A program made the translations under genes and the position numbers. The notes under the pieces are model-generated. The model saw only the letters and a program-made list of their open reading frames with translations. It searched no databases and was not told where the DNA came from. DNA of 64,000 nucleotides from Dysgonamonadaceae bacterium. GTDB lineage: Bacteria > Bacteroidota > Bacteroidia > Bacteroidales > Azobacteroidaceae. Shown one piece after another: positions 12,617-52,721 of this stretch (position 1 is the first letter of the stretch; each line of letters opens with the position of its first letter). Location: assembly GCA_031253625.1 (NCBI GenBank), contig JAIRVZ010000128.1, positions 31,307-95,306 on the forward strand, written 5' to 3'.

Positions 12617-12941
12617 TATTTGGATGTCGGATATATCTTACTCACAGGGAGAAGAAAGAGGTTCTTTGTATTTGTTGATATTACAGAATTCAATATTGAA
12701 TGAATTTCATCCTACGGTTATTGTTTGTCCGATGACGACAAATATTGTTTCAGGAAGTGAAATTTTGAGAGTATATGTTCCGGGAGAAAGCACGCAAATA
12801 GAAAAAGCTTGTGATGTGGTAATCGACCAGATAAGAGTAATTGGAACTGAGAGGTTAGTTAGAAAAAAAGGAAAATTACCGATGGAGTATGCTGAAAAAG
12901 TTAAAGAAAATATAAAAATTGTAATGGATATAGATATATGA
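12594..12941 (+). CDS. mazF: Type II toxin, PemK/MazF family endoribonuclease
   Basis: Shows the MazF-fold pattern: FDIWMSDI...RGSLYLLILQN...HPTVIVCPMTT...VVIDQIRVIGTERL. ATG at 12594 is preferred over TTG at 12582, and the gene overlaps the antitoxin 3' end. Confidence 0.8.
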   Translation: MKNVDQFDIWMSDISYSQGEERGSLYLLILQNSILNEFHPTVIVCPMTTNIVSGSEILRVYVPGESTQIEKACDVVIDQIRVIGTERLVRKKGKLPMEYAEKVKENIKIVMDIDI

Positions 12942-13069
12942 ATGCAACAGAATTATATGTTTATCAGTCGATTGGGGCAGGTTCCGTGACAATATTAATA
13001 GTTATTGCTGTTTTAATTATTGGCTATGGATTTTACAGGCGAATAAAATTAAGCTCAAAAGGATGGTAA
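12938..13069 (+). CDS. Small (43 aa) single-pass membrane peptide, start overlapping the mazF stop (ATGA)
   Basis: Hand-translated as MNATELYVYQSIGAGSVTILIVIAVLIIGYGFYRRIKLSSKGW. It has a hydrophobic core followed by a basic tail and is below the 60-aa cutoff of the ORF track. Confidence 0.4.
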   Translation: MNATELYVYQSIGAGSVTILIVIAVLIIGYGFYRRIKLSSKGW

Positions 13070-24860: not shown

Positions 24861-24877
24861 CAGCCGAATAACGAAAA

Positions 24878-24940
24878 ATGATGAAAACAATGTTAGCAAA
24901 TATGTATTGGTGGCGTTTCTTACAATTCAAAAAATCGTAA
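24878..24940 (+). CDS. trp leader peptide, 20 codons, with tandem Trp codons
   Basis: Hand-translated as MMKTMLANMYWWRFLQFKKS, followed by a stop codon. TGG TGG lies at 24908-24913. It is followed by a strong terminator and then trpB. Confidence 0.7.
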   Translation: MMKTMLANMYWWRFLQFKKS

Positions 24941-24983
24941 GGGGCGAGGCTATATATGTAAACTATAAAAATAGAAACATAAA

Positions 24984-25021
24984 AAGAGGGCTGTTGTACT
25001 TACGACAGCCCTCTTTTCTTT
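24984..25021 (+). terminator. Attenuator terminator of the trp leader
   Basis: AAGAGGGCTGT-loop-ACAGCCCTCTT followed by TTCTTT. It lies between the leader peptide and trpB. Confidence 0.8.
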
Positions 25022-30256: not shown

Positions 30257-30346
30257 ATCCCCTAAAGGGGACTTTAGTTTCTGAAAAGACCGATTGAAGC
30301 TAAGGTTTTATGCACTCCAAAGTCCCCTTTAGGGGATTTAGGGGTA
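30248..30346. repeat. 28-bp perfect inverted repeat spanning the trpC stop codon and the trpC-trpF spacer
   Basis: TACCCCTAAATCCCCTAAAGGGGACTTT (30248-30275) is the exact reverse complement of 30319-30346. Each arm contains its own CCCCTAAAGGGG palindrome. Confidence 0.9.
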
Positions 30347-30363
30347 GAAAAAAGAGAATTATT

Positions 30364-31767
30364 ATGATTATAAAAGTATGCGGAATGAAAAATCCTGAAA
30401 ATATTTCGGGAGTAATTGGGTTGGGAGTCAACTGGATAGGATTTATTTTTTACGAAAAATCAGCACGATATTTCGGAGATAATCCTGTTTCAATATCCTC
30501 CGGAAACACATTCAAGAAAATAGGCGTATTTGTAAATGCAACTTGCGAACAAATTCTTCAAACCGCTACCACACATCGATTGGATTATATTCAATTGCAT
30601 GGAGATGAAACACCCGAATTTTGTTGCCAATTGCAAAAACAAGGAATCGCTATTATCAAGGCATTTTCAATATCATCTGTTAAAGATTTGGAAAAAACTT
30701 CGGAATATGAAGGAAAAGCAGATTATTTTCTGTTTGATACTAAATGTGAGACTTACGGAGGTTCAGGCAAATCATTCGACTGGTCTATTTTATCTGCTTA
30801 TGAAGGAAAGACTCCATTTTTGTTGAGCGGAGGAATCAATCCTCAAAGCATTCAAACCATCAACGATTTTTATCATCCGCAACTTGCAGGAATTGACCTC
30901 AACAGCGGTTTTGAAATCGAACCGGGATTAAAAGACGTTCAAGAATTATCAGATTTTTTAAAAAATTACAATAATCAAATAAAATTATTCATCATGAATC
31001 GTATAACAAATTTATTTAATACAAAAAAATTGGGAATACTATCTGTTTATTTCACAGCTGGTTATCCAAATCTCAACGACACGACAACCATATTAAAAGA
31101 GTTGCAAGCAAAAGGCATTGACTTGGTTGAAATCGGTATCCCTTTCTCCGATCCGATGGCCGATGGACCGGTTATCCAACAAGCTGCAACACAAGCTCTT
31201 CGCAACGGAATGTCGTTGAAAAAGTTATTTGAACAACTCAACGATATTCGCAAGGAAATTCATATCCCACTGATACTTATGGGTTATCTGAATCCCGTTA
31301 TGCAATACGGATTTGAAAATTTCTGTCGCGATTGTGCCAAAGTTGGTATCGATGGAATGATTATCCCCGATCTTCCGTTTGCCGATTATATATCCGAATA
31401 CAAAGCCATTGCGGAGCAATACAATTTGAAGATGATAATGCTTATCACACCCGAAACTTCAGAAGAACGTATTCACCAAATCGACACTAACACCGATGGA
31501 TTTATCTACATGGTTTCGAGTGCAGCAACCACCGGAGCACAACAAAGTTTCGACGAACAAAAGCAAGCTTATTTCAGTCGCATCAATAATATGGCATTGC
31601 GTAATTCTCTCCTTGTAGGATTCGGTATCAGCAACAAAGCCACTCTCGACGCTGTCAACACTTATTCTTCAGGCGGTATTATCGGAAGTAAATTTATCCA
31701 GTTATTGCAAAGCGAAACAACTCCGGAAAAGGCTGTCGATAAATTATTGGAAGTACTTGGATTTTGA
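30364..31767 (+). CDS. trpFA: Phosphoribosylanthranilate isomerase (30364-30993) continuous in frame with tryptophan synthase alpha chain (30994-31767)
   Basis: TrpF-like MIIKVCGM...LSGGI...IDLNSGFE for about 210 aa, then MNRITNLF...[17 protein letters not shown] (TrpA), with no stop codon between them. Frame verified codon by codon across 30937-30999. Confidence 0.8.
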
Positions 31768-31784: not shown

Positions 31785-31792
31785 TATCTTTG
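31785..31792 (+). promoter_or_regulatory. -7 promoter box TAtcTTTG for regulator copy 1
   Basis: The same box and downstream leader are repeated nearly identically at 36718. Confidence 0.55.
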
Positions 31793-31835
31793 CATTGATT
31801 TTTCCATACACAGGAATTAAGAAAGCAATAACAAA

Positions 31836-33638
31836 ATGAAACTTACAACCCGATTTTTTATTCAGGGATTACTTTGTCTATTTATCTGTTTTATTTCTGC
31901 AACAGCTATTTATGGACAAAATAACGACTTTCAGCACAAGAAAGATTCGCTGCTAAACGTAATCGCATCTACACAAGGTGAAGAAAAATTAAAAGCTTAC
32001 GGAGTATTGACAAATTCACAACTGCAATTTCCGGATGAAGAAATTGATTCAAAGTTACAATACATAAATGACTTTATCCTCGAAGCGCGCAAACAAAAAA
32101 ACAAAGAATACGAAAGCATAGCATATAGAAATAAACTTGCTTGTTTTTGGAATCACTTAAAATTTGATGAATTTGATCGAGTAGTAAACGAATACCTATC
32201 TTTCTTTAAGAAAAATAATTTCCATGGAAACTACTACGATTTCTATGAGTGTTTGATACTGCGACGATACGGTGGAACGAATAATTACAAACACATGATA
32301 GAAGGAGTCAAGGAAATGTATATAGAAGCCCAACAAGAAGATTGCTTATATGGAATAATTAAAGCGACCTCTCTAATAGCCAATATATATATCGAAGAAA
32401 AACGCTATGAAGAAGCCGAAAAATACTATCGAGAAACAATAAAAAATGCACTTAAACTGATTAAAGAAGAACCCGGCCAACTTAATAATTATCGCTTAGT
32501 GTCAAGCGGATACTACGGATTGTCAAATGCTTTGTGGGCACAAAATAAGATAAACGAGTTACTTTCTTTAATGCCTGTTTGGAAAAAACATACGACCGTA
32601 TTTGAAAAAAAATTCGATTATCCCGAACCGAATTTAAGGTATTACTATAAGTGTTACGCTGAGATTTACATCGAAAAGGGCGAATACGATTTAGCCGAGT
32701 CATATTGCGATTCCATGAAATCAATAATCTCTCCTTTGGAATTGTTCTTTGTATGGAATATCAAAGCTGCTATTTGTAACGGACGCGAAGAGTACGATAG
32801 CGCTATTAATTGGATCGATAAAATTATTGAGGATAGAACGAATCTCGGAGATTTATCTCAAGTAATTTTCTGTTTAATAAAAAAAGCATCCATGCTAAGC
32901 GAAATGGGGCGCGCAAAAGAATTATATTCGGTTTTTGACAGCTATATTGAACTCAACGATTCTCTCCGCCTGTTGGAAAACAACGCCCAGCTCGACGAAA
33001 TCCGTACTCAATACGAAGTTGACAAATATGTTGCCGAAAAAGAACAACAACGTATAATTATTTTTTCTTTGATCGTTGTCTGCGTCGTGTCGTTAATCGC
33101 CCTCGGAATATGGATATACTACTACCGGAAAGTTACTCAAAAAAATCGCACATTAGCACAACAAATCAAAAAATTAACTATCCAACAGGAAGAACAAATC
33201 AATGAAATGCTTGCCAAAACCTCATTTTTATCTGATTCTCCTAACGAAACAACCGCAGTAGAAACAACAATCAACCCCGACCTGTGTATCGAAAGCCGAA
33301 TGGATAAATTGTGTATTGCTATCCGCGACCTCTTACTTAAAGAAAAGATTTACCGTAACTCAACTATTACTCAAGAACAAGTGGTTGAAAGATTGGGTAC
33401 AAACAAAAATGTATTTGCCAAAGCTATGGAATACTGTTTAAAAACGACATTCAAAGATTATGTTAACTCCCTTCGTTTGAAAGATGCCGTGCAGCTACTC
33501 GAACATTCCGACCTGTCGATAGAAGAAATTTCTGAAATGATAGGCTTCGGAACAATACGCACACTTCAAAACCAATTCAATACCAAATACAACATGACAC
33601 CCAAAAACTACCGGTATTTGGCAAAAACAACAATGTAA
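31836..33638 (+). CDS. Membrane-anchored one-component regulator: signal peptide, TPR-like extracytoplasmic domain, single TM, coiled coil, C-terminal AraC-type HTH (copy 1)
   Basis: 600 aa. Hydrophobic N-terminus, helical-repeat region rich in Y/E/K/A, TM segment IIIFSLIVVCVVSLIALGIWIYYY, and C-terminus NSLRLKDAVQLLEHSDLSIEEISEMIGFGTIRTLQNQFNTKYNMTPKNYR. Confidence 0.75.
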   Translation: MKLTTRFFIQGLLCLFICFISATAIYGQNNDFQHKKDSLLNVIASTQGEEKLKAYGVLTNSQLQFPDEEIDSKLQYINDFILEARKQKNKEYESIAYRNKLACFWNHLKFDEFDRVVNEYLSFFKKNNFHGNYYDFYECLILRRYGGTNNYKHMIEGVKEMYIEAQQEDCLYGIIKATSLIANIYIEEKRYEEAEKYYRETIKNALKLIKEEPGQLNNYRLVSSGYYGLSNALWAQNKINELLSLMPVWKKHTTVFEKKFDYPEPNLRYYYKCYAEIYIEKGEYDLAESYCDSMKSIISPLELFFVWNIKAAICNGREEYDSAINWIDKIIEDRTNLGDLSQVIFCLIKKASMLSEMGRAKELYSVFDSYIELNDSLRLLENNAQLDEIRTQYEVDKYVAEKEQQRIIIFSLIVVCVVSLIALGIWIYYYRKVTQKNRTLAQQIKKLTIQQEEQINEMLAKTSFLSDSPNETTAVETTINPDLCIESRMDKLCIAIRDLLLKEKIYRNSTITQEQVVERLGTNKNVFAKAMEYCLKTTFKDYVNSLRLKDAVQLLEHSDLSIEEISEMIGFGTIRTLQNQFNTKYNMTPKNYRYLAKTTM

Positions 33639-33666
33639 CTTATTGATATTCAATGCGCTGATAAAA

Positions 33667-33693
33667 TTTCGCTTTTTCGTGCTATTTTTTCGC
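33667..33693 (+). promoter_or_regulatory. Two TTTCGC motifs spaced exactly 21 bp apart, upstream of the fibre-1 promoter (candidate operator)
   Basis: TTTCGC at 33667 and 33688. The -7 box lies 27 nt downstream of the second motif. The geometry is analogous to the TTGGCC array at 38586-38654. Confidence 0.4.
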
Positions 33694-33714
33694 GTCGTTT
33701 TTCATCCTTCATTC

Positions 33715-33722
33715 TACTTTTG
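33715..33722 (+). promoter_or_regulatory. -7 promoter box TActTTTG for fibre gene 1
   Basis: A positionally equivalent TAccTTTG box occurs at 38677 upstream of fibre gene 2. Confidence 0.5.
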
Positions 33723-33813
33723 TGTTGTAAATTAATTTGTCGAAAAAAAAGAAAACGACAATTTATTCACACAACACATGCTAAGTTAAACATGAGGTTT
33801 AATAATTCATTAT

Positions 33814-33944
33814 CTCCGGTGTTTCTTTATCCTTATTAGGAAATTCGATAGTCCATATTTGCGAAAATACGGCGAATAGGCTTTTTGTGAAAAAAGTTTC
33901 TTTTTTATCTTTTTTATTTATGTGTATGATAAAGGACACCGGAG
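33814..33944 (+). promoter_or_regulatory. Conserved long-range inverted repeat in the fibre-1 leader
   Basis: CTCCGGTGTTTCTTTATC (33814-33831) pairs with GATAAAGGACACCGGAG (33928-33944). The same pair is present in copy 2 at 38760-38778 and 38877-38893. Confidence 0.6.
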
Positions 33945-33991
33945 TTTTTTTCAATTAACAATTAATACATACTAAAAAATAAAAAAAGAAA

Positions 33992-36634
33992 ATGATTATG
34001 AAAACTATTCAAAAAACAACAAAAACAAAGAATTTAAAGAAATTAAAGAACTTGAGGATTCTAAGAGAAGTAATGTCGTTAATATCCTTAATATCCTTAA
34101 TGGCGATAACGCCCCTACAAGCACAAGTGAAAATCGGCCAAGATGCTGAACCTAAAAAAGGTGCGGTGTTGGAATTAAACAGCAACTCAGAAGGTTATAT
34201 CGGAGGCTTGCGACTGCCCAATATATGGATAACAGATATAAATGTTATCCCGGCAAGTTTCACCGAAAACGGATTAAACACTACAGAAAAAGATTCCTTG
34301 GCAGGAGCAATCATTTACAACACAAATCCCGGATTAAAAAACGATGCCAACGAAACCACCGGAACCGGGGTGTATTATTGGACAGGAACAAAATGGGTAA
34401 AAGAAGTCAACAATAGTCGCACCACAGTAGTAGACCGCACTGCACCGATAACGGTAGCAAAGACCACAGCAGGAACCACAGATACATATACTGTAGGAAT
34501 TTCGACCGGAACAACAGGACAAGTGCTGACAACCAACGCATCGGGTAGTGCAATATGGGCAAATGTTCCTCCTCCAACCGTAACTGTCAATAACGGATTA
34601 ACACAACTTACAGATGCTGCGAAAACAATTCAACTGGGAGGTAGCTTAATTCAGAATACTGAGGTTAAAACCGGCACTAACAGTATGGTTTTTAGCACTA
34701 ATGGCGGCTCGCAAGGTCTGACGATTAAGAATGATTTTGTTGGAATTGGTGGAATTTCTACAATAAATAAATTTTATGTTAATGGAATATCTCGTATATC
34801 AGACGGCTTGGCTGTCGGCGGTGTGAATGTTCCGGACGGTTATATGTTGTATGTAGATGGAGGAAATTCTTATTTCAGCAATCGTGTAGGCATTGGAACT
34901 CCACCGAATAGTAATTATAGATTAACTGTTTCCGAAAAAGCCTATGTACAAGACGTTTTGCATGTCGGTGGAACTACTACTACAACCAACAAATTATTTG
35001 TTAATGGAAATACTCGTATAGAAGGCGGCTTAGGCGTTGGAGGAATTAATCCCACATATTGGTTAGATGTTAACGGAACTTCTCGCTTTTCAGGGAGTAT
35101 GTGGATCAACCCAAACCCTCAGCATGGCTCCGCCTCAGGAAGATTAGGCGTTGGAGTTGCACCCGGTACCAACCCCGATGCGTTAGTTCATATAAAAAAA
35201 GGAAATTACGCATATGAACATCTTCTTTTGCTGGAAGATGAATTTATACCTTCCATGCGTTTAGTCTTACCTAAAGATGCTGTAATGGACAGTCAACCCG
35301 ATTACAGACTGGGAATGATAATGTTTGGTAGAGACAACGCTATGCATCCGACATATCCCACATCTCCCAGCAATTGGGCTTGGGGTAACGGTTACAAACC
35401 GTATGCTCACATTGAAGTAGTAAGAACTGTAACCGGTAGCTCCATAGGTGGAACAATGAGATTTGCAACAGCCAATGGTTTTGAAAGTAATGGATTGGGC
35501 AGTGATACTGTAAGAATGACAATTAGCGATCGTGGAAACGTAGGTATCGGAATAGGTAAAAATCTCGCTTCAACAAGACTACACATTCAAACAGAAGGCA
35601 CAACGTCAAAACCTGTTGCAGGATTCACACTTGTCGACGGAACACAAGGACTCGGAAAAGTGCTGACATCAAATGCTTCCGGAGTAGGAACATGGAAGGA
35701 TTTACCTGCTGTTTTGAGCGATCTCGAACCTTGGTATGAGAGAAATACAGAAGGCCCTGCAACCCAAAATAATAAAGATGCTTATTTGAGAGCAAATGTG
35801 GCTCTCGGGTTTAGTAATGTCGGAGGTTTCCCTCAAATTGCAATAACAGACGAAGGTGCGGGAGTAGACCAGAATATCCGCCTGTATGTTAACGGAAATA
35901 CGGTTAATACAAATGATGTGCATGTTCATCACCGGATAGGGATTGGCATTGTTGGCGATGATAATCAAGGATATGTTCCTAAGGCGGCATTACACATTGT
36001 TAATAACCACCCGACACATGGCGCCAAACGTGCTGATATTGATATTTCAACATTTAGAGGAGAAGAAATGGAGCTGGATGATGGAACTCCGACACTCAAT
36101 TTTAAGACTTCGCGAGGCGAATGGACAGCACAATCTGATGCCAATGTCGACGATGTAATCGGTAAAATCCTTTTCCGACCAAACCAAGCAGAAACTGCTG
36201 CTTCTGCATCAATCACAGCAACTTACAAAGGAAATTATTCGGCCAAATTAGATTTCAAGGCAGAAGAATTTTATTTCAATGGAACAGCAATTGGCAGTAT
36301 TGTTTCCGACCGTCGTTTGAAAACAAACATCACTCCGTCGAAATACGGTTTATCGGAAATCATGCAATTACAACCGGTAAATTACGAACTGAAAAGCAAA
36401 CTGGGAGTTGAGCGTGTAGGCTTTATCGCCCAAGAAGTTCAACCGATTATACCCGAAGTAGTATCAGGCACCGAAGGCGACCTCAACAAAGGCGAAACAT
36501 TGTCTATTGCATATAGCGAGTTAGTGCCGGTATTGACAAAAGCCATTCAGGAACAGCAAACTCAAATCGAATCGCAACAAAAAATTATCGAACAATTAGA
36601 AGCCCGCTTGAAAGCGTTAGAGGCAGCAAAGTAA
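33992..36634 (+). CDS. Secreted fibre protein with C-terminal S74-type intramolecular chaperone (tail fibre domain-containing protein), copy 1
   Basis: 880 aa. Signal peptide ending PLQAQ. Conserved N-domain VKIGQDAEPKKGAVLELNS...GVYYWTGTKWVKE. The C-terminus SDRRLKTNITPSKYGLSEIMQLQPVNYE...GFIAQEVQPIIPEVV plus a coiled coil is typical of the endosialidase chaperone family. Confidence 0.8.
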   Translation: MIMKTIQKTTKTKNLKKLKNLRILREVMSLISLISLMAITPLQAQVKIGQDAEPKKGAVLELNSNSEGYIGGLRLPNIWITDINVIPASFTENGLNTTEKDSLAGAIIYNTNPGLKNDANETTGTGVYYWTGTKWVKEVNNSRTTVVDRTAPITVAKTTAGTTDTYTVGISTGTTGQVLTTNASGSAIWANVPPPTVTVNNGLTQLTDAAKTIQLGGSLIQNTEVKTGTNSMVFSTNGGSQGLTIKNDFVGIGGISTINKFYVNGISRISDGLAVGGVNVPDGYMLYVDGGNSYFSNRVGIGTPPNSNYRLTVSEKAYVQDVLHVGGTTTTTNKLFVNGNTRIEGGLGVGGINPTYWLDVNGTSRFSGSMWINPNPQHGSASGRLGVGVAPGTNPDALVHIKKGNYAYEHLLLLEDEFIPSMRLVLPKDAVMDSQPDYRLGMIMFGRDNAMHPTYPTSPSNWAWGNGYKPYAHIEVVRTVTGSSIGGTMRFATANGFESNGLGSDTVRMTISDRGNVGIGIGKNLASTRLHIQTEGTTSKPVAGFTLVDGTQGLGKVLTSNASGVGTWKDLPAVLSDLEPWYERNTEGPATQNNKDAYLRANVALGFSNVGGFPQIAITDEGAGVDQNIRLYVNGNTVNTNDVHVHHRIGIGIVGDDNQGYVPKAALHIVNNHPTHGAKRADIDISTFRGEEMELDDGTPTLNFKTSRGEWTAQSDANVDDVIGKILFRPNQAETAASASITATYKGNYSAKLDFKAEEFYFNGTAIGSIVSDRRLKTNITPSKYGLSEIMQLQPVNYELKSKLGVERVGFIAQEVQPIIPEVVSGTEGDLNKGETLSIAYSELVPVLTKAIQEQQTQIESQQKIIEQLEARLKALEAAK

Positions 36635-36725: not shown

Positions 36726-36777
36726 CATTGGTAGTTACCATTTTTCCATACACAGGAATTAAGAAAGCAATAACAAA

Positions 36778-38565
36778 ATGAAACTTACAACCCGATTTTT
36801 TATTCAGGGATTACTTTGTCTATTTATCTGTTTTATTTCTGCAACAGCTATTTACGGACAAAACAACGACTTTCAGCACAAAAAAGATTCGCTGCTAAAA
36901 ATAATCGCCTCAACACAAGGCAAGGAAAAATTGGCGACATACAAACAACTAACGAATTCAAACTTTCACTTTCCGGAAGAGGAGATTAATATTAAACTGC
37001 AGTATATAAAAGATTTTATTCGCGAAGCGCGAAAACAGCAAAATAAAAAATACGAGAATGATGCTTACAGAGCAGAACTTGCTTGTTTGTGGAATAATTT
37101 AATGTTTGACAAATTTGAGCAAGAAGCGAAGCGATATCTACCTTTTTTTAAGGAGAATGGGTACAGTGAAAATTACTACGATATTTATGCCTGTATGATA
37201 ATCCGACAATACGGAAATGATAATTCCAAAGGCCTTACAGAAGGCACGAAAGAAATGTATGCAGAAGCCAAACAAGAAGATAACTTATATGGAATGTCCA
37301 AAGCAACCTATTTATTAGCAGAAATGTATTTTGTGGAAGAAAGATTTGATGATGCTGAAAAATACTATAACGAAACAATAAAAAATGTTTTATTACTGAT
37401 AAAAAATGCACCCGATAAATCTGACAATTACGACCTTGTGTCGTTTGGATATTATGGATTAGCACTCGCTCTGACACACCAAAAGAAAACAAATGAATTA
37501 CTTTTACTAATGCCTGTTTGGGAACAACATATAATTGCTTTTGAAAAAGCTTTCTGTTATTCCGAGCGACAAAAAAGATATTACTATAAAATCAAAGCTA
37601 AAATTTGTCTTTACAAAAAAGAATACGAAAAAGCTGAATTGTATTGCGATTCTATAGATGCAATAACTCCTTCTGTAGAATTATTTTTATCATGGGATTT
37701 AAGAGCTGACATTTGTGAAGCACGCGAAGAATATGATAAAGCCATTGATTGGATTGACAAAATCATATCATTCAACTCTAACATTGAAGAAACAATCAGC
37801 ATGGTGCATTTATTAAGATTAAAGTCGGAATATTTAAGCAAGATGGGAAGAGCGGAAGAATCATATTCGTTTTCAGAAATGGCATTTCAATATAATGATT
37901 CTCTTCGTACGTTAAAAACCAACGCCCAGCTCGATGAAATCCGTACCCAATACGAAGTAGACAAGCATGTTGCCAAAGAAGAACGCCAGCGCATAATTAT
38001 TTTTTCTTTGATTAGTGGCTGCATCGTGTTGCTCCTCGCACTTGGAATATGGATACATTACAGCCGGAAAATTACCCAAAAGAACCGCATATTGGCGCAT
38101 CAAATCAGAGAATTGACCATTCAACAAGAAGGGCAAATCAATGAAATGCTTACCAAAACCTCTTTTGTGCCGGAAGAAGAAAAACCGGAAACTGTTGACA
38201 GCGACTTATGTGTCGAAAGCCGTATGGATAAATTGTGTATCGCTATTCGTGATCTTTTGCTCAAGGAAAAGATATACCGCAACCCTGCCATTACCCAAGA
38301 TCTTGTGATTGAACAGTTGAGAACAAGCAGAAGATTATTCTCCGAAGCCTTTGAATATTGTTTCAACATGAAATTCAATGATTACATCAATTCCCTTCGT
38401 CTGAAAGATGCTGTAGTGCTCCTCGAACAATCCGATTTGTCAATAGAAGAAATTTCCGATAAGGTTGGTTTCGGAGCGGCACGTACTTTCCGGCGACAAT
38501 TTAGTGAAAAATACGGTATATCTCCCAAAAATTACAGAGATGAGAATGTAACCAGAATCTCCTAA
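36778..38565 (+). CDS. Membrane-anchored TPR / AraC-HTH one-component regulator (copy 2, paralogue of 31836-33638)
   Basis: 595 aa. The first 40 residues are identical to copy 1, and the domain order, juxtamembrane block NAQLDEIRTQYEVDK and HTH region are the same. Confidence 0.75.
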   Translation: MKLTTRFFIQGLLCLFICFISATAIYGQNNDFQHKKDSLLKIIASTQGKEKLATYKQLTNSNFHFPEEEINIKLQYIKDFIREARKQQNKKYENDAYRAELACLWNNLMFDKFEQEAKRYLPFFKENGYSENYYDIYACMIIRQYGNDNSKGLTEGTKEMYAEAKQEDNLYGMSKATYLLAEMYFVEERFDDAEKYYNETIKNVLLLIKNAPDKSDNYDLVSFGYYGLALALTHQKKTNELLLLMPVWEQHIIAFEKAFCYSERQKRYYYKIKAKICLYKKEYEKAELYCDSIDAITPSVELFLSWDLRADICEAREEYDKAIDWIDKIISFNSNIEETISMVHLLRLKSEYLSKMGRAEESYSFSEMAFQYNDSLRTLKTNAQLDEIRTQYEVDKHVAKEERQRIIIFSLISGCIVLLLALGIWIHYSRKITQKNRILAHQIRELTIQQEGQINEMLTKTSFVPEEEKPETVDSDLCVESRMDKLCIAIRDLLLKEKIYRNPAITQDLVIEQLRTSRRLFSEAFEYCFNMKFNDYINSLRLKDAVVLLEQSDLSIEEISDKVGFGAARTFRRQFSEKYGISPKNYRDENVTRIS

Positions 38566-38581
38566 TTTTTAACATTTGTAT

Positions 38582-38665
38582 AAAATTGGCCGCTTTTTGT
38601 ACAGTTTTGGCCTGTATTTGTGCAAAATTGGCCGTCCTTTGCGCAGTTTTGGCCTGTCCTTTTTA
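38582..38665 (+). promoter_or_regulatory. Two 42-nt tandem repeats carrying four TTGGCC motifs phased at exactly 21 bp (candidate AraC-type operator array)
   Basis: TTGGCC at 38586, 38607, 38628 and 38649. The last copy sits at the -33 position relative to the -7 box at 38677. Confidence 0.6.
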
Positions 38666-38676
38666 GTCCTTCGCTT

Positions 38677-38684
38677 TACCTTTG
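38677..38684 (+). promoter_or_regulatory. -7 promoter box TAccTTTG for fibre gene 2
   Basis: Consensus TAnnTTTG, about 270 nt upstream of the fibre-2 start. It is positionally equivalent to 33715. Confidence 0.5.
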
Positions 38685-38955
38685 TCCTATAAGTAAGTTG
38701 AAGAATAAAACAAAAAAATTATTCACACGACACAACTAAAAAGTTTAATAATTCATTATCTCCGGTGTTTCCTTTATCATTATTAGGAAATTTAGTAATC
38801 CATATTTGTGAAAATACGGCAAGCAGGCTTTTTGTGAAAAAAGTTTTCTTTTTTATCTTTTTTTATTTATGTGTGTGATAAAGGACACCGGAGTTAATTT
38901 TAACAAAGGAAATAAACAGTAAAATACATTATACTAATAAAAATAAAAAAAGAAA

Positions 38956-41900
38956 GTGATTATGAGAGTTATTCAAAAAACAAAAGTTTTAAATGTCTTA
39001 ATGGTTTTAATGTCCTTAATGCCATTAGTTACTACACAAGCACAAGTGAAAATCGGCCAAGATGCCGAACCCGTCAAAGGCACAGTATTGGAATTAAACA
39101 GCAATCCGGGAGGTTATATCGGTGGTTTGCGATTGACTAATGTATCTTTGGCAAGTATAACCGATTTAACACGGCTTAGCGAAACTCCCTCGGATGTGGC
39201 AGATTTGAAAGGAGCGATTGTTTACAATACAAACCCTGCCATAATCGGTGGAAATGGAACAGGTGTTTATTACTGGGATGGTGCCAAATGGGTAAAAGAT
39301 GCCGGCGCAACAGTTGATTTGGATGCTTGGTTAACAAAAGGAAATGCCGGAACAGATGCCTCGGTTAATTTTATCGGCACAAAAGATTATCAACCTCTAC
39401 AGTTCAAAATAGGCAATGTCTCAAATGTTGCCACGCATGCCGGACGACTTGCTACAACAACCACTTCTTTTGGCTTTAATGCCTTAGGCAAAAACACAAT
39501 AGGGATTCGTAATACCGCCGTAGGCGTGAATGCTTTATTTTCCAACACTCAAGGCAGTAGCAATACCGCTGTGGGAGACAGTGCATTGTATAAAAACACT
39601 ACAGGTTATGGAAACGCAGCAGTAGGTTATGCTGCGCTTGCGAACAATGTCAATGGTTTTGGGAATACCGCAATGGGCGATAGCGCATTACAAAATTCTA
39701 CAGGTAGCAGCAATACAGGAGTGGGGTATCATGCACTTGAAAGAAACACTGCAGCAGGGGTTAGGAATACCGCCATGGGTGCTTATGCGTTGCAAGGTAA
39801 TGCTTCTTCGTCTACCGGTGGAACAGGCAATACTGCGATAGGTTATGCTGCACTAAGAGATAAGCATTCTAATAGTAACTATAATACTGCAATTGGCGAC
39901 AGCGCATTAGCAAAGGTCAGTTATTCTTCCAACAACAATACAGCCATTGGTCATAAAGCCGGAAGTGAGATAACAAACGGCAAAAACAATATTGCTGTAG
40001 GAGTTAACGCACAGGTATATAAAAATGGTTCTGATACTTCTTCCGACCACCAGCTTGCTATCGGTAAGTTTATTTATGGAGTAACAGGCGATACTGAAGC
40101 CAATGCAAAAGTAGGTATCGGAACAAATAACCCTACTCGAAAACTCCATATCGACAATGGAACAACCAACGGAGCAATAAGAATTGTTGACGGAACAGAA
40201 GGACTTAATAAAGTATTGGCCTCCGCTGCCGACGGTACCGGAACATGGAAAGACCCCAATACAATTATCGACGCATGGTTTATCACAGGAAATTCCGGAA
40301 CAAACTCATCTAATTTTATTGGCACAAAAGATAATCAGTCATTGAGATTCAAAGTGAACAACACTCACGCCGGAATAATCATTCCCGGTAAAAGTAGTGT
40401 GGCGTTCGGGTACAACGCAGGGCCAAAATTCGATGGATCAGAGGCAGGAAATACTGCTTTCGGAACAAATGCGCTTGCTATGAGTGATTACCGCCAGTCT
40501 CATAATACCGCCATAGGTTATAATACGCTTGCAAACAATTTTGATACTAACCTCACCTGGGGTAACCATAATACGGCAATAGGTAGTAACGCGCTTGCAG
40601 CCAATAAAACCGGCAATTATAACACGGCCGTAGGTAGTTATGCGCTTGCTGCACATGCCGGCTATCTTTATGGTGGTGCAAATACAGCCATAGGTAGTCG
40701 TGCGCTTGCTAAAAGTACTTCCGGACAAGATAATACAGCCGTAGGTAATAATGCGCTTGCAGTAAGTGATGGAGTCTCTTATAGTACAGCCGTAGGTAGT
40801 GAAGCACTTGCTGCAAATACAAACGGCTCTTATAATACCGCCGTAGGTTATAAGTCGCTTGCAGCCAACAAAACCAGCCATAGGAATACCTCCATAGGTT
40901 ATGAGGCGCTTACTAAAAGTACAGCAGGCTGGAATACAGCTGTAGGTTATCAGGCGCTTGCCTCCGACACTACCGGTACTGATAATGTTGCTTTGGGAGT
41001 TTCAGCTCTTTACTGGAATGGAAAAGGGAGCTATAATGTTGCCGTAGGAGTGAGTGCTCTAAACAGCAACAGAGCAAGCAGTAATACGGCCGTAGGTTAT
41101 GAAGCGCATTGTACAATTGTCAATGGCGAATTTAATACAGCGTTAGGATATCGTGCCATGGGTAATGGCGGATCCATGTCCAGTGAGTATACTGGCAGTC
41201 GTAATACGGCCGTAGGCGACAGCGCATTGTATGGAATTACTTCCGGTAACCGCAATGTAGGTATTGGAGTTAAAGCAGGAAGTAATATACGAAGCGGTCA
41301 TAATAATATCACCATAGGAGTCAACGCACAGGTGGTGGGTATTAGCAACCAGATTTCGATTGCCAACCTGATATACGCAACCGGAGCAACCGGAGAGGCT
41401 AATACCGGAAATGTAGGTCTCGGAACAAACGACCCTCAAGCAAGACTACATATCGTTAAAGGAACTTCAGCTAACGGATTTATACTTCAAGACGGAATAA
41501 CAGCAAATCCTAACAATTATGTACTGACTGCCGATGCTCAAGGAGTTGGAACATGGAAACCGGCCGGTGGCGCCATCGAACCTTGGTATAAGATAGGAAG
41601 CAGTCCGGCTGCTCCGTCAACTTTAAATACAGACGATTCTTATTTGATGGCCAAAGTTGCTATTGGAGCTAACGCTATTGCTACTGTTCATGAAAATCAG
41701 GCTCAATTAACCGTCGTAGGCGGAGATGTTTCTATTCAAGGAATTACTGTTGGGACAGGAAAAGGCAACGATAATACAAATACTGCCGTAGGTCGTAATA
41801 CATTAAGCAAACTTCAACCAAGAGAAGCAACTGAAACAGAAATTGCAGGTGCTAGTCATGAAGATCGAATAGGAGTTACATATGGAGATGGAAGATATAA

Positions 41901-42663
41901 TTTAGCATTCGGTAGCGGTACAGGTTGGAATATAACAACCGGAACAGGTAACATAATAATGGGTAGTATTACTGATTTATCAACCGGAAGATTTAACACT
42001 GCGATTGGATGTCGTTCTAGTGTGAGTCCTAATGATAATCATCAAATTTCAATACATAATTTGATAAATGCAACAGGTGCAACAGGCGTAATGCACTCAA
42101 ATCCAGCTATATCAGATGATTATGTAGGCGAAGGAAAAGTGGGTATCGGAACAAATCGGCCTAAAGCAAAATTACATGTTATGCTTACAAATGGTATATC
42201 GAAAACTTATGAGCCGGGTTTTATGCTTCAAGATGGAAGTCAAGAAGACGGTTATGTGCTGACATCAAATGCCGACGGATTAGCCAAATGGATGGAACCT
42301 AACGGAACCGGTTCAGATCGTCGCTTGAAAACAAACATTACTCCCTCAAAATATGGCTTATCGGAAATCATGAAATTACAACCGGTAAACTACGAATTGA
42401 TAAGCAAACCCGGAGTTGAACGTGTAGGCTTCATTGCCCAAGAAGTTAAACAGATAATTCCCGAAGTTGTTCTTGGAACTGAAGGCGATCTCGAAAAAGG
42501 TGAAACATTATCTGTTGTTTATGGCGAATTTGCTCCGGTATTAACAAAAGCCATTCAAGAACAACAAACTCAAATCGAATCATTGCTAAACTTAGTTGAA
42601 TCACAACAAAAAATTATCGAACAATTAGAAGCCCGCTTGAAAGCATTAGAAACAGCGAAGTAA
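38956..42663 (+). CDS. Secreted repeat-rich fibre/adhesin with C-terminal S74-type intramolecular chaperone, copy 2
   Basis: 1235 aa. The ORF track uses GTG at 38956; an ATG lies at 38962. Same N-domain and C-terminal SDRRLK chaperone domain as copy 1, with a central region of many NTA(V/I)G..AL repeats. Confidence 0.8.
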   Translation: MIMRVIQKTKVLNVLMVLMSLMPLVTTQAQVKIGQDAEPVKGTVLELNSNPGGYIGGLRLTNVSLASITDLTRLSETPSDVADLKGAIVYNTNPAIIGGNGTGVYYWDGAKWVKDAGATVDLDAWLTKGNAGTDASVNFIGTKDYQPLQFKIGNVSNVATHAGRLATTTTSFGFNALGKNTIGIRNTAVGVNALFSNTQGSSNTAVGDSALYKNTTGYGNAAVGYAALANNVNGFGNTAMGDSALQNSTGSSNTGVGYHALERNTAAGVRNTAMGAYALQGNASSSTGGTGNTAIGYAALRDKHSNSNYNTAIGDSALAKVSYSSNNNTAIGHKAGSEITNGKNNIAVGVNAQVYKNGSDTSSDHQLAIGKFIYGVTGDTEANAKVGIGTNNPTRKLHIDNGTTNGAIRIVDGTEGLNKVLASAADGTGTWKDPNTIIDAWFITGNSGTNSSNFIGTKDNQSLRFKVNNTHAGIIIPGKSSVAFGYNAGPKFDGSEAGNTAFGTNALAMSDYRQSHNTAIGYNTLANNFDTNLTWGNHNTAIGSNALAANKTGNYNTAVGSYALAAHAGYLYGGANTAIGSRALAKSTSGQDNTAVGNNALAVSDGVSYSTAVGSEALAANTNGSYNTAVGYKSLAANKTSHRNTSIGYEALTKSTAGWNTAVGYQALASDTTGTDNVALGVSALYWNGKGSYNVAVGVSALNSNRASSNTAVGYEAHCTIVNGEFNTALGYRAMGNGGSMSSEYTGSRNTAVGDSALYGITSGNRNVGIGVKAGSNIRSGHNNITIGVNAQVVGISNQISIANLIYATGATGEANTGNVGLGTNDPQARLHIVKGTSANGFILQDGITANPNNYVLTADAQGVGTWKPAGGAIEPWYKIGSSPAAPSTLNTDDSYLMAKVAIGANAIATVHENQAQLTVVGGDVSIQGITVGTGKGNDNTNTAVGRNTLSKLQPREATETEIAGASHEDRIGVTYGDGRYNLAFGSGTGWNITTGTGNIIMGSITDLSTGRFNTAIGCRSSVSPNDNHQISIHNLINATGATGVMHSNPAISDDYVGEGKVGIGTNRPKAKLHVMLTNGISKTYEPGFMLQDGSQEDGYVLTSNADGLAKWMEPNGTGSDRRLKTNITPSKYGLSEIMKLQPVNYELISKPGVERVGFIAQEVKQIIPEVVLGTEGDLEKGETLSVVYGEFAPVLTKAIQEQQTQIESLLNLVESQQKIIEQLEARLKALETAK

Positions 42664-49400: not shown

Positions 49401-50920
49401 GTTTTAGAATTGACTTTTTGAACACGACTTATACTTTCTCCGATTATATACACTTGAAACCGGATGAAATTTCTATTAATAATGTTACATTTTATGATAA
49501 GTTCGGAAACAAAGCATTGGTTAATGGCTCTGTAAAACACCATTATTTAAATGATTTTGTATTTTCAGCCAATATGAATGCAAATAACTTCTTGGTTTTT
49601 AATGCAACAGAGCGGGCAAATCCCTTATTTTTTGGAACTGCATTCGGGACGGGGCGTCTTGATATCACCGGAAATGAAAGTCAAATTGATTTCGACATAA
49701 GAATGAGAACCAATGAAAATACCAGAATAACATTGAATTTCATGGAACAAAGCGATGTCGTTGAATATAATTTTATCAATTTTGTTTCAAGAAATGCTCC
49801 CGAACCCATCACCTTAGATAAGATATTTTCTCAATACGCCAGCAAGCCCATTTACATGAGATCTGAATCGGGGGCGGATCTCAGATTTAATTTGCAATTA
49901 GCAGCAACTCCGGATGCTACCATCGAGTTAATCATGGATCCGGTCAGCGGAGATAGAATTAAAGGTTCCGGACAGGGAAATATCAATATTCAATATGGGA
50001 CAAATTCACCGCTGAAACTTTTTGGAAGATTTGTGTTGGAAAGAGGAACGTATAATTTTAGTTTGCAGCAGGTTATACATCGAGAATTCCAAATTCGCAG
50101 TGGAAGTTATGTTGCATTCAATGGCGATCCTTTTGCTGCAACTTTAGATGTTACAGCCATTTATGCACTTTCTGCTAATATTTCTGATTTGAGTGAAAGC
50201 TTGGCACAAGATAGAATGCGCATCCCGATTAATTGTGTTTTGAAAATTACCGGTGCTTTGGAACGACCGAATATTAAATTTGATATTGAGGCTCCGAATT
50301 CAGATGCAAGTCTTGAGCGGCAAATCAGGGCGTTTATCAGCACAGAGGAAATGATGAACCGTCAAGTGATTTATTTATTGGCTCTCAATAGATTTTATAC
50401 TTTAGAGTCATCGGGAGGGACAACTACACAAAGAAATAATGCATTAGCCGATCTTCTCGCATCTACTTTTTCATCTCAGCTATCGAGTTTGTTGGGCTCC
50501 ATAAGTGAGAATGTTCAGGTTGGAGCATTCTATACAACAAACAACAATAGTGCTTTTTCGGATACGGAAATGGCACTTATGTTATCCAGTCAGTTGTTGA
50601 ATAACCGATTGATTATCAATGGTAATTTTGGCTACAGGGACAATCCGATAAGGAATACGAGTTTTATTGGCGATTTTGATGTGGAATTTAAACTTACGAG
50701 AGTAGGCGATATTCGTTTGAGAGCATATAACCATTATAACGACAGAATTTATTCTCTTCGATCTGCTTATACAACACAAGGTCTCGGGCTTTTATTCATA
50801 AGAGATTTCAATAATTTCAGGTATCTCTTTAGAAGAAGAACATTTCCCGTTTCTCCACTTTCGGTGCCGACGCCACCGGTTGTGACGAACGATTCGATTA
50901 CTTCATATATTTTTCATTAA
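46478..50920 (+). CDS. tamB: Translocation and assembly module protein TamB-like (DUF490 C-terminus)
   Basis: 1480-aa ORF with an N-terminal TM anchor and long beta-rich sequence, divergent from tsaD. The start is uncertain (see findings). Confidence 0.75.
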   Translation: MLFLCLFYIIPAGLLSIPWVQKKISVIVSEKLHDTLGVPVSIGNINFKLFNKLVIRDVYLEDQQGEVLLQVKRLGVGFDFLPLFRGEIRFNSAQLSCFQFNLTKENDQSPLNLQFVIDAFASRDTTKKKSNIDLAIKSLSLQKGVFTFNVQDAPETQGKFNAKRMELRDISSKIRIENLTNSELVAKIDRFSFKEQSGLVVRRIAFGLDFSKDSASIKKLEILLPHSSLVMENVFADFKDVSGMNDYINNSLISLQISPSKICLQDLKAFVPAFANDKDLLNVQGKVSGKMNNLQLIDFLLTDHDRLSFQADMSLENLTNEEEIFIFGAVKRSFVSAAEIERIANIFSENPINLPQEVFRLGNVRFEGEISGRFRHLTAFGLFSTDIGNIRTDIVIGKNRTNFIRGTIRSHDIDLRRLLLNDNYGIVNFNILVDAQQNQNNKYEGTVNAQVNSIEFKRYTYENINFKGDFTENSFKGTLDIDNPNGKLSSKGFVQLNGDKSVFNFLAKAEHIKLDQLNLSKKYIDSDLSFKLKVDFTGNNIDNLLGRIGIKDVQFKTKDGEYNLDTLSVSSYITEMNDKVLSVNSDLLKGTMVGNYSLKDIVPALRETGSLFLPAIIKAPQKKVVSKNNVKLDITIGDLEQVASVFDLPFVLYENTIIKGNYNHDSIKFNMEVLLPKSLINKMQLKDCYIKLENKNDKEAILLVDVTQLKGNKTNKIASTFNISDNKISSKLKWNNRTDQYNGIINILATLTEQPGTFPLKTEIDLLESKVTFKDSIWNINPSQIVLDSAKIKINQLYLNHADQHVKVNGVISKYPEDSLWVDLNKVNLDYIFDIINLRAFELGGIVSGTATGNDLYHTRQLSTNLSVEAFSFNKSVVGDLTLLGTWDDEKQGIQMLGDVYKNDSSSMKVDGMIFPVKKALDFKFNAKNVDASFLRRYLDKVTKDISGLVTGEVNLFGNFSNITFSGDAFVKNGSFRIDFLNTTYTFSDYIHLKPDEISINNVTFYDKFGNKALVNGSVKHHYLNDFVFSANMNANNFLVFNATERANPLFFGTAFGTGRLDITGNESQIDFDIRMRTNENTRITLNFMEQSDVVEYNFINFVSRNAPEPITLDKIFSQYASKPIYMRSESGADLRFNLQLAATPDATIELIMDPVSGDRIKGSGQGNINIQYGTNSPLKLFGRFVLERGTYNFSLQQVIHREFQIRSGSYVAFNGDPFAATLDVTAIYALSANISDLSESLAQDRMRIPINCVLKITGALERPNIKFDIEAPNSDASLERQIRAFISTEEMMNRQVIYLLALNRFYTLESSGGTTTQRNNALADLLASTFSSQLSSLLGSISENVQVGAFYTTNNNSAFSDTEMALMLSSQLLNNRLIINGNFGYRDNPIRNTSFIGDFDVEFKLTRVGDIRLRAYNHYNDRIYSLRSAYTTQGLGLLFIRDFNNFRYLFRRRTFPVSPLSVPTPPVVTNDSITSYIFH

Positions 50921-52041
50921 AATACTTTACTCAACCAAAGTCCGAAGAAACGGTCATAAACAGAATAAATATTGTTTTCCTGTGTGATGATCTCTTTATC
51001 AAGAAGTTGCGTGGCACTTGTCTGTACCGACCCCGACGAATGTAAACCGTGCTTTTTGATAAATGCCCCTGAAGTAATGCCTTTAGCCTTTCCTTCTTTT
51101 GCAATGGCAAAAAGTAATTCTCTTTGCCGTTCAGGCAATAGATTTAATGTATTAGCAAACAAATTTTCATACGAAAAAATCCTGCTGTTTATTGCTTCAA
51201 AAAATTGCTCTTCCGTACATTCCTCATCTTCATTTAGTAGCGAAAAAAGTTCGTTGTAAATCGCTTGAACATACCAAGTGTGCCCTTCAAAAAGTTGGTA
51301 TGCTTTTTTGATCAACTCTTTGGAAATTCGCTTTTTCCCCAATGTGAAAAGTCGACTTGCAAACTCTGTATATGCTTTCTCATCAATAACATCAAGAGTT
51401 AATAGAGCAGCACTTTGATAGAAAGGTCGTGAAGACGAGAAAAAAATATTTTGTAAAATATGCCTTTGACTTCCTGCAAACACAAATGTAGCATTTTTGC
51501 AATGCTGAACATACGTTCTTATTATTGCCTCAACGTTTTTTTCGGGATATTTGGCGATTTGTTGAAATTCATCAATAGCCACAATGCAAGGTTTATTGGC
51601 AAAGTCAATGTATTTAAAAATCTCTTCGAGCGTAAACTCCGGACTGCGAATATCGCCAATGCCAATATCAAAAACAGGTGTTCCGCTAATTTCGTCGAGT
51701 TTAAAAGCCGGGCGTAACGATGTTATGATTGAAAAAAACTGTTCAACAAACTTTTTACCTTTAGGCTTCAGACGTTCGAAAATTTCCTTACCTAACTTGA
51801 AAACAAACTCGCTGAGGTTGTTTGTTGCATAAATATCAATGTAGAATGTGTAGAAATGTTTTTGAATTTTGTTTTGCTGAAAACAATGCTCAATCAATCT
51901 TGTTTTTCCCATTCTGCGAGGAGAAATTAACACCAAATTGTTGCCGTTTGTTACTTTTCGGATAAACTCTGCACTTTCTTTTTCTCTGTCGCAGAAATAG
52001 TCTGAAGAAATATAACCGCTTATTATAAAAGGATTTCTCAT
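50917..52041 (-). CDS. AAA/ATPase_2-family ATP-binding protein (archaeal-type ATPase with C-terminal winged-helix-like region)
   Basis: FCDREKE...LVLISPRRMGKTRL (Walker A) and IVAIDEFQ (Walker B). Its stop codon overlaps the convergent tamB stop. Confidence 0.7.
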   Translation of the reverse strand: MRNPFIISGYISSDYFCDREKESAEFIRKVTNGNNLVLISPRRMGKTRLIEHCFQQNKIQKHFYTFYIDIYATNNLSEFVFKLGKEIFERLKPKGKKFVEQFFSIITSLRPAFKLDEISGTPVFDIGIGDIRSPEFTLEEIFKYIDFANKPCIVAIDEFQQIAKYPEKNVEAIIRTYVQHCKNATFVFAGSQRHILQNIFFSSSRPFYQSAALLTLDVIDEKAYTEFASRLFTLGKKRISKELIKKAYQLFEGHTWYVQAIYNELFSLLNEDEECTEEQFFEAINSRIFSYENLFANTLNLLPERQRELLFAIAKEGKAKGITSGAFIKKHGLHSSGSVQTSATQLLDKEIITQENNIYSVYDRFFGLWLSKVF

Positions 52042-52077
52042 AAAAATATAATTTTCTACAAAAGTAATTATTATTTT

Positions 52078-52134
52078 TTGATTATCAAATTTTAATAATC
52101 AAATTTTGATTATCATTTTTTAATAATCAAATTT
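52078..52134. repeat. About four tandem 14-bp repeats T(G/A)AT(T/A)ATCA(A/T)(A/T)TTT
   Basis: Reads TTGATTATCAAATTT, TAATAATCAAATTT, TGATTATCATTTTT and TAATAATCAAATTT, in the divergent region between the ATPase and exonuclease genes. Confidence 0.8.
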
Positions 52135-52220
52135 TAATAATGCAATCAGATGTGTTTTTTCTCCCTCTGCTTTGTTTTGGTATAGTTAAAACCTAACTTT
52201 GCAGAAAAATAAAAAGAACA

Positions 52221-52721
52221 ATGAAAAACTTTGCTGCCATTGATTTTGAAACCGCCAATCATCATCCTTCAAGTGTGTGTAGCGTAGGCATAGTGATTGT
52301 TCGTGATGGATTGATTACCGATAAAATTTATCGCTTAATTCGTCCCGAACCGGAATGGTATTCCTATTGGAACACGCAGATTCACGGATTGACCGCAACT
52401 GATACTGCCAACGAAAAAGTTTTTTCGCATGTATGGAAAGAAATTGCACCGAAAATCGAAGATTTACCTTTAGTGGCACATAACAGTCCTTTCGACGAAG
52501 GCTGTTTGCGGGCAGCACATCGCGTTTATCAAATGGATTATCCCGATTATGAATTTCATTGTACCTGTCGTACCTCTCGAAAAACGTTTGGGAAATTGTT
52601 GCCCAATCATCAATTGCACACTGTTGCAGCACATTGCGGATTCGACTTGATGAACCACCATCATGCTTTAGCTGATGCGGAAGCTTGTGCATGGATAGCC
52701 TTGAAAATTATTTCCAAATAA
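52221..52721 (+). CDS. DEDDh 3'-5' exonuclease (DnaQ/epsilon-like domain protein)
   Basis: Exo motifs AIDFETAN, AHNSPFDEG and HHALADAEA. A TAacTTTG box lies at 52194-52201, with TTTG at 52171. Confidence 0.8.
   Translation: MKNFAAIDFETANHHPSSVCSVGIVIVRDGLITDKIYRLIRPEPEWYSYWNTQIHGLTATDTANEKVFSHVWKEIAPKIEDLPLVAHNSPFDEGCLRAAHRVYQMDYPDYEFHCTCRTSRKTFGKLLPNHQLHTVAAHCGFDLMNHHHALADAEACAWIALKIISK

Follow-up and report, generated by a model that had tools for sequence, protein, structure and literature searches.

Phased direct repeats between an AraC-type regulator gene and a fibre gene in a Dysgonamonadaceae genome: a candidate operator

What reads the four evenly spaced TTGGCC motifs that separate a regulator gene from a fibre gene in this Dysgonamonadaceae genome, and what would follow for the gene downstream? 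We analysed a 64,000-nucleotide stretch of DNA (the window) together with related loci from other genomes and metagenomes. From these comparisons we put the probability that the four units at 38573-38656 form the operator of the adjacent regulator, regulator 2, at about 0.75.

The cassettes, the repeats and the fibre-2 promoter

The locus consists of two tandem cassettes on the + strand, in the order regulator 1, fibre 1, regulator 2 and fibre 2, after which comes a protein that carries a CotH domain and a T9SS sorting domain. Regulator copy 2 (36778-38565, +; 595 aa), delineated by Pfam, hydropathy and comparison with AraC-type domains in the PDB, matches at 100% identity a protein labelled by NCBI as coming from a Dysgonamonadaceae MAG. 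Its hydropathy profile shows a hydrophobic signal peptide or anchor at residues 2-27 and a strong, single membrane helix at residues 403-429, followed by basic residues. The sensor is of the TPR type, with weak Pfam TPR matches. The preliminary description of this DNA had called the gene adjoining the repeats an AraC-HTH gene, and Pfam agrees, with HTH_18 scoring 60.1 bits (cut-off 33.6) over residues 513-588 and HTH_AraC 43.5 bits. The AraC-type domain (residues ~485-590, coded by 38230-38547) is complete, comprising ~100 aa with two HTH motifs, and its PDB matches include YesN, an HTCS domain, Rns, ToxT, XylR, SoxS and MarA.

Regulator copy 1 (31836-33638, +; 600 aa) is 63% identical to copy 2 and is built of the same parts: an N-terminal anchor or signal, TPR, a membrane helix and a C-terminal AraC domain. 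The recognition helices differ, reading TNKNVF/GTIRTLQNQF in copy 1 versus TSRRLF/GAARTFRRQF in copy 2. A minus-strand ORF at 10026-11813, also of 595 aa, was considered as regulator copy 1 and rejected, as it is LepA. The gene presumed to be regulated by copy 2 is fibre 2 (38956-42663, +; 1235 aa), which may instead start at the ATG at 38962, while the presumed target of copy 1 is fibre 1 (33992-36634, +; 880 aa). Both fibres carry at their C-terminus Peptidase_S74, an intramolecular-chaperone domain. Neither the regulator nor the fibres are covered by a specific NCBIfam model.

Parts of the two cassettes are more alike than the rest. The regulator promoters and first 40 codons are identical between the copies (31790-31960 versus 36730-36900), so that residues 1-40 are 100% identical compared with 56% in the sensor, and these identical 5' ends suggest that gene conversion took place or that the cassette boundary is a recombination joint. 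Likewise, the last ~116 residues of the fibres (S74 and coiled coil; 36280-36634 versus 42310-42663) are 83% identical, outside which the fibres have diverged, and an 18-nt hairpin sequence is identical at 36589-36606 and 42618-42635. The conserved fibre ends could make cassette shuffling possible. Within the coding region of fibre 2, a 51-nt tandem repeat (2.7 copies, 40730-40865) encodes 17-residue repeats of an NTAVG...AL type that recur through these fibres and resemble trimeric adhesin head repeats.

Between regulator 2 and fibre 2, TTGGCC starts at 38586, 38607, 38628 and 38649 (+), exactly 21 bp apart; positions and spacing reproduce those given in the preliminary description. The hexamer is found 27 times in the 64-kb window versus 28 expected, and since it is not enriched across the window the cluster is a local feature. 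Tandem Repeats Finder delimits an array at 38574-38657 with a period of 42, 2.0 copies, 83% matches and a score of 119. The earlier count of 32 identical positions in a 42-nt tandem repeat was recovered in the register beginning at 38582; the best register begins at 38574 and gives 35/42, a value that is reached at lag 42 nowhere else in the window. A 17-nt unit, TTTGYRYANWWTTGGCC, matches the four operator places with 0 mismatches and has no other match in the 64 kb at up to 2 mismatches.

The phasing of the four sites at two helical turns stands as first described. The description of the sites can be refined, as each 21-bp unit holds not a single hexamer but two boxes, TTTGYRCA and TTGGCC, with centres ~10 bp apart. 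Delimited by the 21-bp register back from the -7 box, and each with an exact match to the 17-nt sequence, the units on the + strand are unit 1, the most distal (catTTGTATAaaaTTGGCCgc, 38573-38593), unit 2 (tttTTGTACAgttTTGGCCtg, 38594-38614), unit 3 (tatTTGTGCAaaaTTGGCCgt, 38615-38635) and the promoter-proximal unit 4 (38636-38656). In unit 4, box 1 is TTTGCGCA (38638-38645, +) and box 2 is TTGGCC (38649-38654, +). Units 1 and 2 constitute the upstream copy of the 42-nt duplication, and unit 3 is the counterpart of the distal unit in the two-unit operators of most related loci.

The repeats are followed by a predicted -7 promoter box, TACCTTTG (38677-38684, +), whose first base lies 28 bp beyond that of the last TTGGCC. 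It was judged by the consensus as quoted in PMC7366714; 22-23 loci carry an unvarying TAnnTTTG, always equally far from the repeats. From the -7 box alone, the fibre-2 start site would be placed at ~38689 ± 3, in which case unit 4 ends ~32 nt before it. Unit 4 and the -7 box are separated by 20 bp, a distance shared by all related loci, and the unit covers the place of a would-be -33 element, which agrees with the earlier remark that the last site lies at the -33 position relative to the box at 38677. In none of the operator promoters is a TTTG or TTG conserved at the canonical -33 distance from the -7 box. A T-tract, TTTTTA (38660-38665, +), lies between unit 4 and the -7 box, and is found at the same place in most related loci. 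A scan for sigma-70 promoters returned no more sites than in shuffled sequence, and the sigma-70 model is irrelevant for this phylum.

The intergenic region of copy 1 aligns with that of copy 2. It carries a putative operator of two units only, atgcgctgataaaaTTTCGCt and ttttcgtgctattTTTTCGCg (33653-33694, +), that is, one 42-nt module, with the core TTTTCG rather than TTGGCC and a -7 box, TACTTTTG, at 33715-33722 (+).

Conservation of the layout and the domain that probably reads the repeats

An alignment of the regulator family was used to fetch 62 loci. A scan of genome contigs yielded ~10 true relatives, mostly distant, and most of the informative loci came from metagenomes; all sequences compared are MAGs or metagenomes, from Dysgonamonadaceae and relatives. 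Isolate names suggest that the relatives are termite-gut MAGs. The target genes in the family encode surface proteins, mostly S74 fibres, the others being GLUG-repeat, Laminin_G_3, FG-GAP and outer-membrane beta-barrel proteins.

Two or four direct repeats with a 21-bp period were found downstream of the regulator at 22 loci (the window copies included) and in a second module of locus L032, and in all 22-23 they end 20 bp before the invariant TAnnTTTG. The preliminary description had made its proposal depend on phased repeats at orthologous loci, and there they are, in the same register. The distance from the repeats to the regulator stop codon ranges from 69 to 484 nt. Because only the distance to the -7 box is constant, the repeats belong to the downstream promoter and not to the 3' end of the regulator gene.

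Upstream of the -7 box, mean self-identity is 0.51 at lag 21 versus 0.21-0.34 at other lags from 8 to 35, and at 279 other TAnnTTTG sites the lag-21 value is 0.29. Since the anchor had been picked by maximising lag-21 similarity, a random-window control was run: the same best pick on 3000 random windows gave 6.5/21 matches on average versus 12.5/21 at the loci, and at least 12/21 matches were reached by 5% of the controls versus 64% of the loci. Moreover, when the anchor was set independently, as the first TAnnTTTG upstream of the leader RNA described below, the same box was obtained in 18 loci. Lag-21 similarity in the fixed register is weak at three loci (L028, L029 and L037); at L029 a 1-nt insertion shifts the register, and at L028 and L037 two units are still recognisable.

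The layout is absent from the distant homologues L005, L007 and L008 (35-37% identical). No repeats were found downstream of L005 and L008. Downstream of the L007 homologue (Parabacteroides sp. Marseille-P3160, 37% identical) there are four palindromic copies of GAGTATACTC at ~5830-5930, the first three ~22 bp apart, a repeat type unlike the family layout.

Four-unit operators with other cores are found at L024, L025, L029, L030, L032, the second module of L032 (L032b) and L033, and these arose independently. That they did so with different cores argues that the extra pair of units is useful rather than accidental. It also bears on the proposal that the 42-nt repeat is a neutral product of slipped-strand duplication between genes and serves no function. 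The distal pair does look like a recent tandem duplication (35/42 identical), two units suffice in copy 1 and most relatives, and copy number is labile, with 2 or 4 units and a 33-nt offset in L030. Neutrality would not, however, account for the independent four-unit operators with different cores, nor for L022, the orthologue of the regulator 2 locus, which keeps its four cores and has substitutions only in the spacer or at degenerate positions. We consider such a neutral origin exceedingly improbable. At L030 the unit pairs lie 33 bp apart rather than 42; same-face phasing of all four sites is accordingly not universal, and exact phasing between pairs seems dispensable for the operator we propose.

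If the repeats are read by the product of the adjacent gene, their sequence should follow its DNA-binding domain. The cores vary between paralogues (TTGGCC, TTGTCC, TTGTCG, TTTTCG, TTTTCC, TTGAAT, TTCGGACTG and others), and core identity is 0.77 within loci versus 0.47 between loci. Operator distance correlates with the distance between DNA-binding domains (r=0.65) and not with that between sensors (r=0.13); a partial Mantel test of operator against DNA-binding domain, with the sensor controlled, gave r=0.68 (p<=0.0005). Because the core co-varies with the adjacent domain, we assign the operator to copy 2 and not to copy 1 or a global factor. The repeats had been put forward as a strong candidate operator for regulator copy 2, a proposal that gains support from this tracking of core and domain and from the layout shared by 22-23 loci.

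The correspondence can be narrowed to two residues. In a directed table, the helix GF-xxxx-T/S-F/L-X572-X573-Q/L/I-F (regulator 2 numbering) was set against the core. Where core position 3 is G (17/17 loci), residue 573 is R; where it is T (6/6), the residue is N or I. Residue 572 is Q at every locus whose core position 6 is G (6/6) and at no other locus. The counts, 17/0/0/6 for residue 573 and 6/0/0/17 for residue 572, are without exception (Fisher p=1e-5 for each rule, with loci taken as independent and shared ancestry ignored). For L003, L009 and L038 the core was moved by 1 nt on visual inspection. When columns of the DNA-binding domain were compared with operator positions by an unbiased mutual-information scan, the 22 sequences gave too noisy a signal and the top pairs lay outside the recognition helices; for this reason the two-residue rule rests on the directed table. 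R573 presumably aligns with the helix-6 arginine of MarA, a residue that contacts bases in the MarA-DNA structure.

On a neighbour-joining tree of the domain the residue switches are scattered, which indicates several independent switch events. Sister pairs are L026/L040 and L032b/L029; L026 (RN, TTTTCC) sits beside L040 (RR, TTGTCC). The second regulator/operator/leader module of L032 (3840-5450 of that locus) comes after a short fibre of 305 aa. Its four units carry TGTGCCnnTTTTTCCT, its helix is GTARSFRNQF, and it fits the rule seen in L026. For the first helix, comparison by eye pairs the motif TNRRxF with TGCACA in the distal box and TNKNxF with GTGCT or GTGCG.

L022 offers a natural experiment of sorts. 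Its sensor is 49% identical to that of regulator 2 and its DNA-binding domain 96%, and it keeps all four TTGGCC units: the 8 substitutions in the 84 nt of its operator all fall outside the TTTG and TTGGCC boxes (p=0.004). Distances between DNA-binding domains and between sensors are uncorrelated across the family (r=-0.13), and sensors seem to have been exchanged onto a fixed module of DNA-binding domain and operator. The leader and operator of L022 are near-identical to those of the window.

These patterns also bear on a reading in which the repeats are phased T/A tracts that bend DNA, in the manner of an upstream promoter element, or sites of some other shared factor. T- and A-tracts do recur every ~10-11 bp through the units, and there is a small bump in self-identity at lags 10-11 (0.34). 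Bending or a shared factor would nevertheless not predict that G/C-rich cores are specific to each locus, or that they agree exactly with two residues of the recognition helix; it would also leave unexplained why the operator correlates with the DNA-binding domain but not the sensor, and the pattern at L022. We regard it as very unlikely.

Mode of action and known systems

Taking the repeats as the operator of regulator 2, we propose the following mechanism. Regulator 2 would be a one-component, membrane-anchored sensor, with TPR outside the cytoplasmic membrane and the AraC-type domain in the cytoplasm. One AraC-type domain would occupy one 21-bp unit, its first HTH reading the distal box TTTGYRCA and its second the proximal TTGGCC, one helical turn away. 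The bound monomers would be arranged head-to-tail and, because the units are spaced two helical turns apart, on a single face of the DNA. The basal state of the family would be two units occupied by one dimer, and here the two-unit module would have been duplicated as the 42-nt tandem repeat, yielding four sites for two dimers. A membrane-tethered regulator 2 would of necessity have to bring the DNA to the membrane, as is known for HTCS and SusR.

On perceiving a signal through its TPR domain, regulator 2 may recruit RNA polymerase from the -33 position, in a class II geometry, and so switch on fibre 2. That it acts as an activator is, on balance, the better-favoured expectation; activation by polymerase recruitment appears most likely because unit 4 would lie at -33, the -7 box is perfect and no TTTG is found at -33. 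The same protein might instead repress from the same sites, its occupancy of the -33 position blocking RNA polymerase until a signal frees the domain. Unit 4 covers the place where sigma would contact -33, and sites that overlap the polymerase footprint are typical of repressors too. The operator promoters, however, lack a conserved TTTG/TTG at -33 and so look activator-dependent, and the classic AraC-family proteins on direct repeats abutting -35 (AraC at I1-I2, RhaS, XylS and MelR) are activators. We consider repression unlikely.

In its geometry the candidate operator adds a new case to a known type. In Bacteroides, HTCS proteins have an AraC-type domain, and for them direct repeats with a mean spacing of 21 bp on one face of the DNA have been predicted (Ravcheev et al. 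2013, PMC3878776). Similarity between HTCS motifs follows similarity of the DNA-binding domains, and the regulator usually controls adjacent genes (PMC3878776); DNA binding by HTCS domains has been demonstrated experimentally at two such promoters (PMC11253607). The operators of the window and its relatives share both the direct-repeat spacing of ~21 bp and motifs that follow the domain. Pfam found no HisKA, HATPase or Response_reg in regulator 2, the matches being of TPR type, weak DUF6377 and HTH, and for want of a kinase or receiver it is not an HTCS. It also differs in having a TPR sensor, one membrane helix and a linker in place of a COG3292-type sensor, in that the targets here are surface fibres and other surface proteins and not polysaccharide utilisation loci, and in the four sites at the window locus rather than two.

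Classic AraC/XylS proteins are soluble, with an N-terminal ligand-binding and dimerisation domain, and act at sigma-70 -35/-10 promoters, whereas regulator 2 is predicted to be membrane-tethered, with an extracytoplasmic TPR sensor and a Bacteroidetes -7 promoter. Shared with them are the ~100-aa domain with two HTHs and half-sites of two boxes one helical turn apart; the four 21-bp units fall within the AraC/XylS half-site description of ~17-21 bp with two boxes ~10 bp apart. The head-to-tail half-sites with a 21-bp period, and a proximal site that on the predicted start would abut the -35/-33 region, likewise recall AraC at I1-I2, RhaS/RhaR, XylS and MelR, and MelR also uses four or more sites.

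With SusR, regulator 2 shares an extracytoplasmic sensor, one membrane helix and a C-terminal cytoplasmic HTH, and in both cases predicted direct-repeat operators adjoin the regulated genes. The DNA-binding domain of SusR is reported to be unlike that of any other family, while the one in regulator 2 is plainly AraC-type. DUF6377, a proxy for the SusR C-terminus, is below threshold in regulator 2 (residues 334-533, 26.1 bits, cut-off 36.7; Pfam), and the sites of SusR lie 67 or 77 bp apart (PMC3878776) compared with 21 here; by these two measures regulator 2 is not SusR-like. Like ToxR and CadC, regulator 2 would be a single polypeptide that senses outside and binds DNA inside, with no phosphotransfer, and ToxR too acts on direct repeats; their DNA-binding domain is N-terminal and of the OmpR winged-helix type, however, while that of regulator 2 is C-terminal and AraC-type. 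In the literature on TPR-AraC membrane regulators and Bacteroidetes S74 fibre proteins we found no description of this family, and both the regulator architecture (TPR, membrane helix, AraC) and the cassette family are apparently undescribed. Given an AraC-type domain, specialists would expect just this operator geometry, which makes it only moderately surprising.

The leader RNA, the cassettes as a system and other features of the window

The ~270 nt that separate the -7 box from the start codon of the fibre gene include the core of a predicted structured 5' leader RNA of the fibre mRNA (38760-38894, +), recognised by conservation and pairing. The corresponding core of copy 1 is at ~33813-33946; the two are ~95% conserved, far above the operator, and the leader is present in 16 further loci (L022-L030, L032-L034, L037, L038, L040 and L042). 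The fold is a 16-bp long-range stem that encloses two small GUGA-capped hairpins and a U-rich tract. RNAalifold and pair counting gave 30 pairs in 4 helices, with 98.3% of cells paired versus 48-64% when the partners were slid, and compensatory double changes occur in 8 pairs versus 2.5 in shuffles, none of 500 of which reached 8. Many of the G-U pairs are valid on the + strand only.

The 18-20 bp inverted repeat at 38760-38779 and 38877-38894 was also considered as an invertible promoter, which was ruled out by a single orientation in 19/19 copies. Because it is never inverted, has G-U pairs specific to the + strand and shows compensatory changes, it is read as an RNA leader. In Rfam 15, the region 38560-38970 has no match at the gathering threshold, the best sub-threshold hit being BTnc231 (20.5 versus 80.4 bits). 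The leader is a candidate for a new cis-regulatory RNA.

Taken together, the cassettes may each be self-contained, with a TPR sensor-AraC regulator, a private operator, a leader RNA and a fibre, and be mutually orthogonal, so that the set works as a switchboard coupling cues to fibres. We offer this tentatively, with the odds somewhat against it. If true, it would mean that specificity is reset by one or two recognition-helix substitutions (573 R/N for G/T; 572 R/Q for C/G), that recombination moves new sensors onto a fixed pair of DNA-binding domain and operator, and that the leader adds a second, RNA-level control step. Environmental sensing would thereby be linked to the expression of phage-tail-fibre-like surface proteins. 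The operator is in any case a concrete, testable proposal with a two-residue/two-base rule for an AraC-type domain, and such recognition rules are, to our knowledge, rare for the AraC family. Looking forward, the engineering of Bacteroidales could draw on the many paralogous pairs of regulator and operator as ready-made orthogonal parts.

Several other features of the window were recorded. A Bacteroidete tryptophan peptide leader RNA (RF01692, 62.7 bits) lies at 24861-24995 and is followed by ORFs from 25105 up to a fused TrpF-TrpA gene at 30310-31767; the fibre cassettes come directly after what is probably a trp operon, of which TrpF-TrpA, the last gene, is the one annotated here. In the 1.5-kb gap that follows lepA and precedes two small overlapping ORFs at ~12378-12616 and ~12600-12943, there are tandem repeats of 24 nt (11906-12013) and of 26 nt (12242-12292, 96% identical), in which motifs like GTATATAC abound. 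Finally, a 14/28-nt tandem repeat of TTTTAATAATCAAA (4.7 copies, 52076-52141) occupies the divergent intergenic region between 50917-52041 (minus) and 52221-52721 (plus), and may be another operator-like array.
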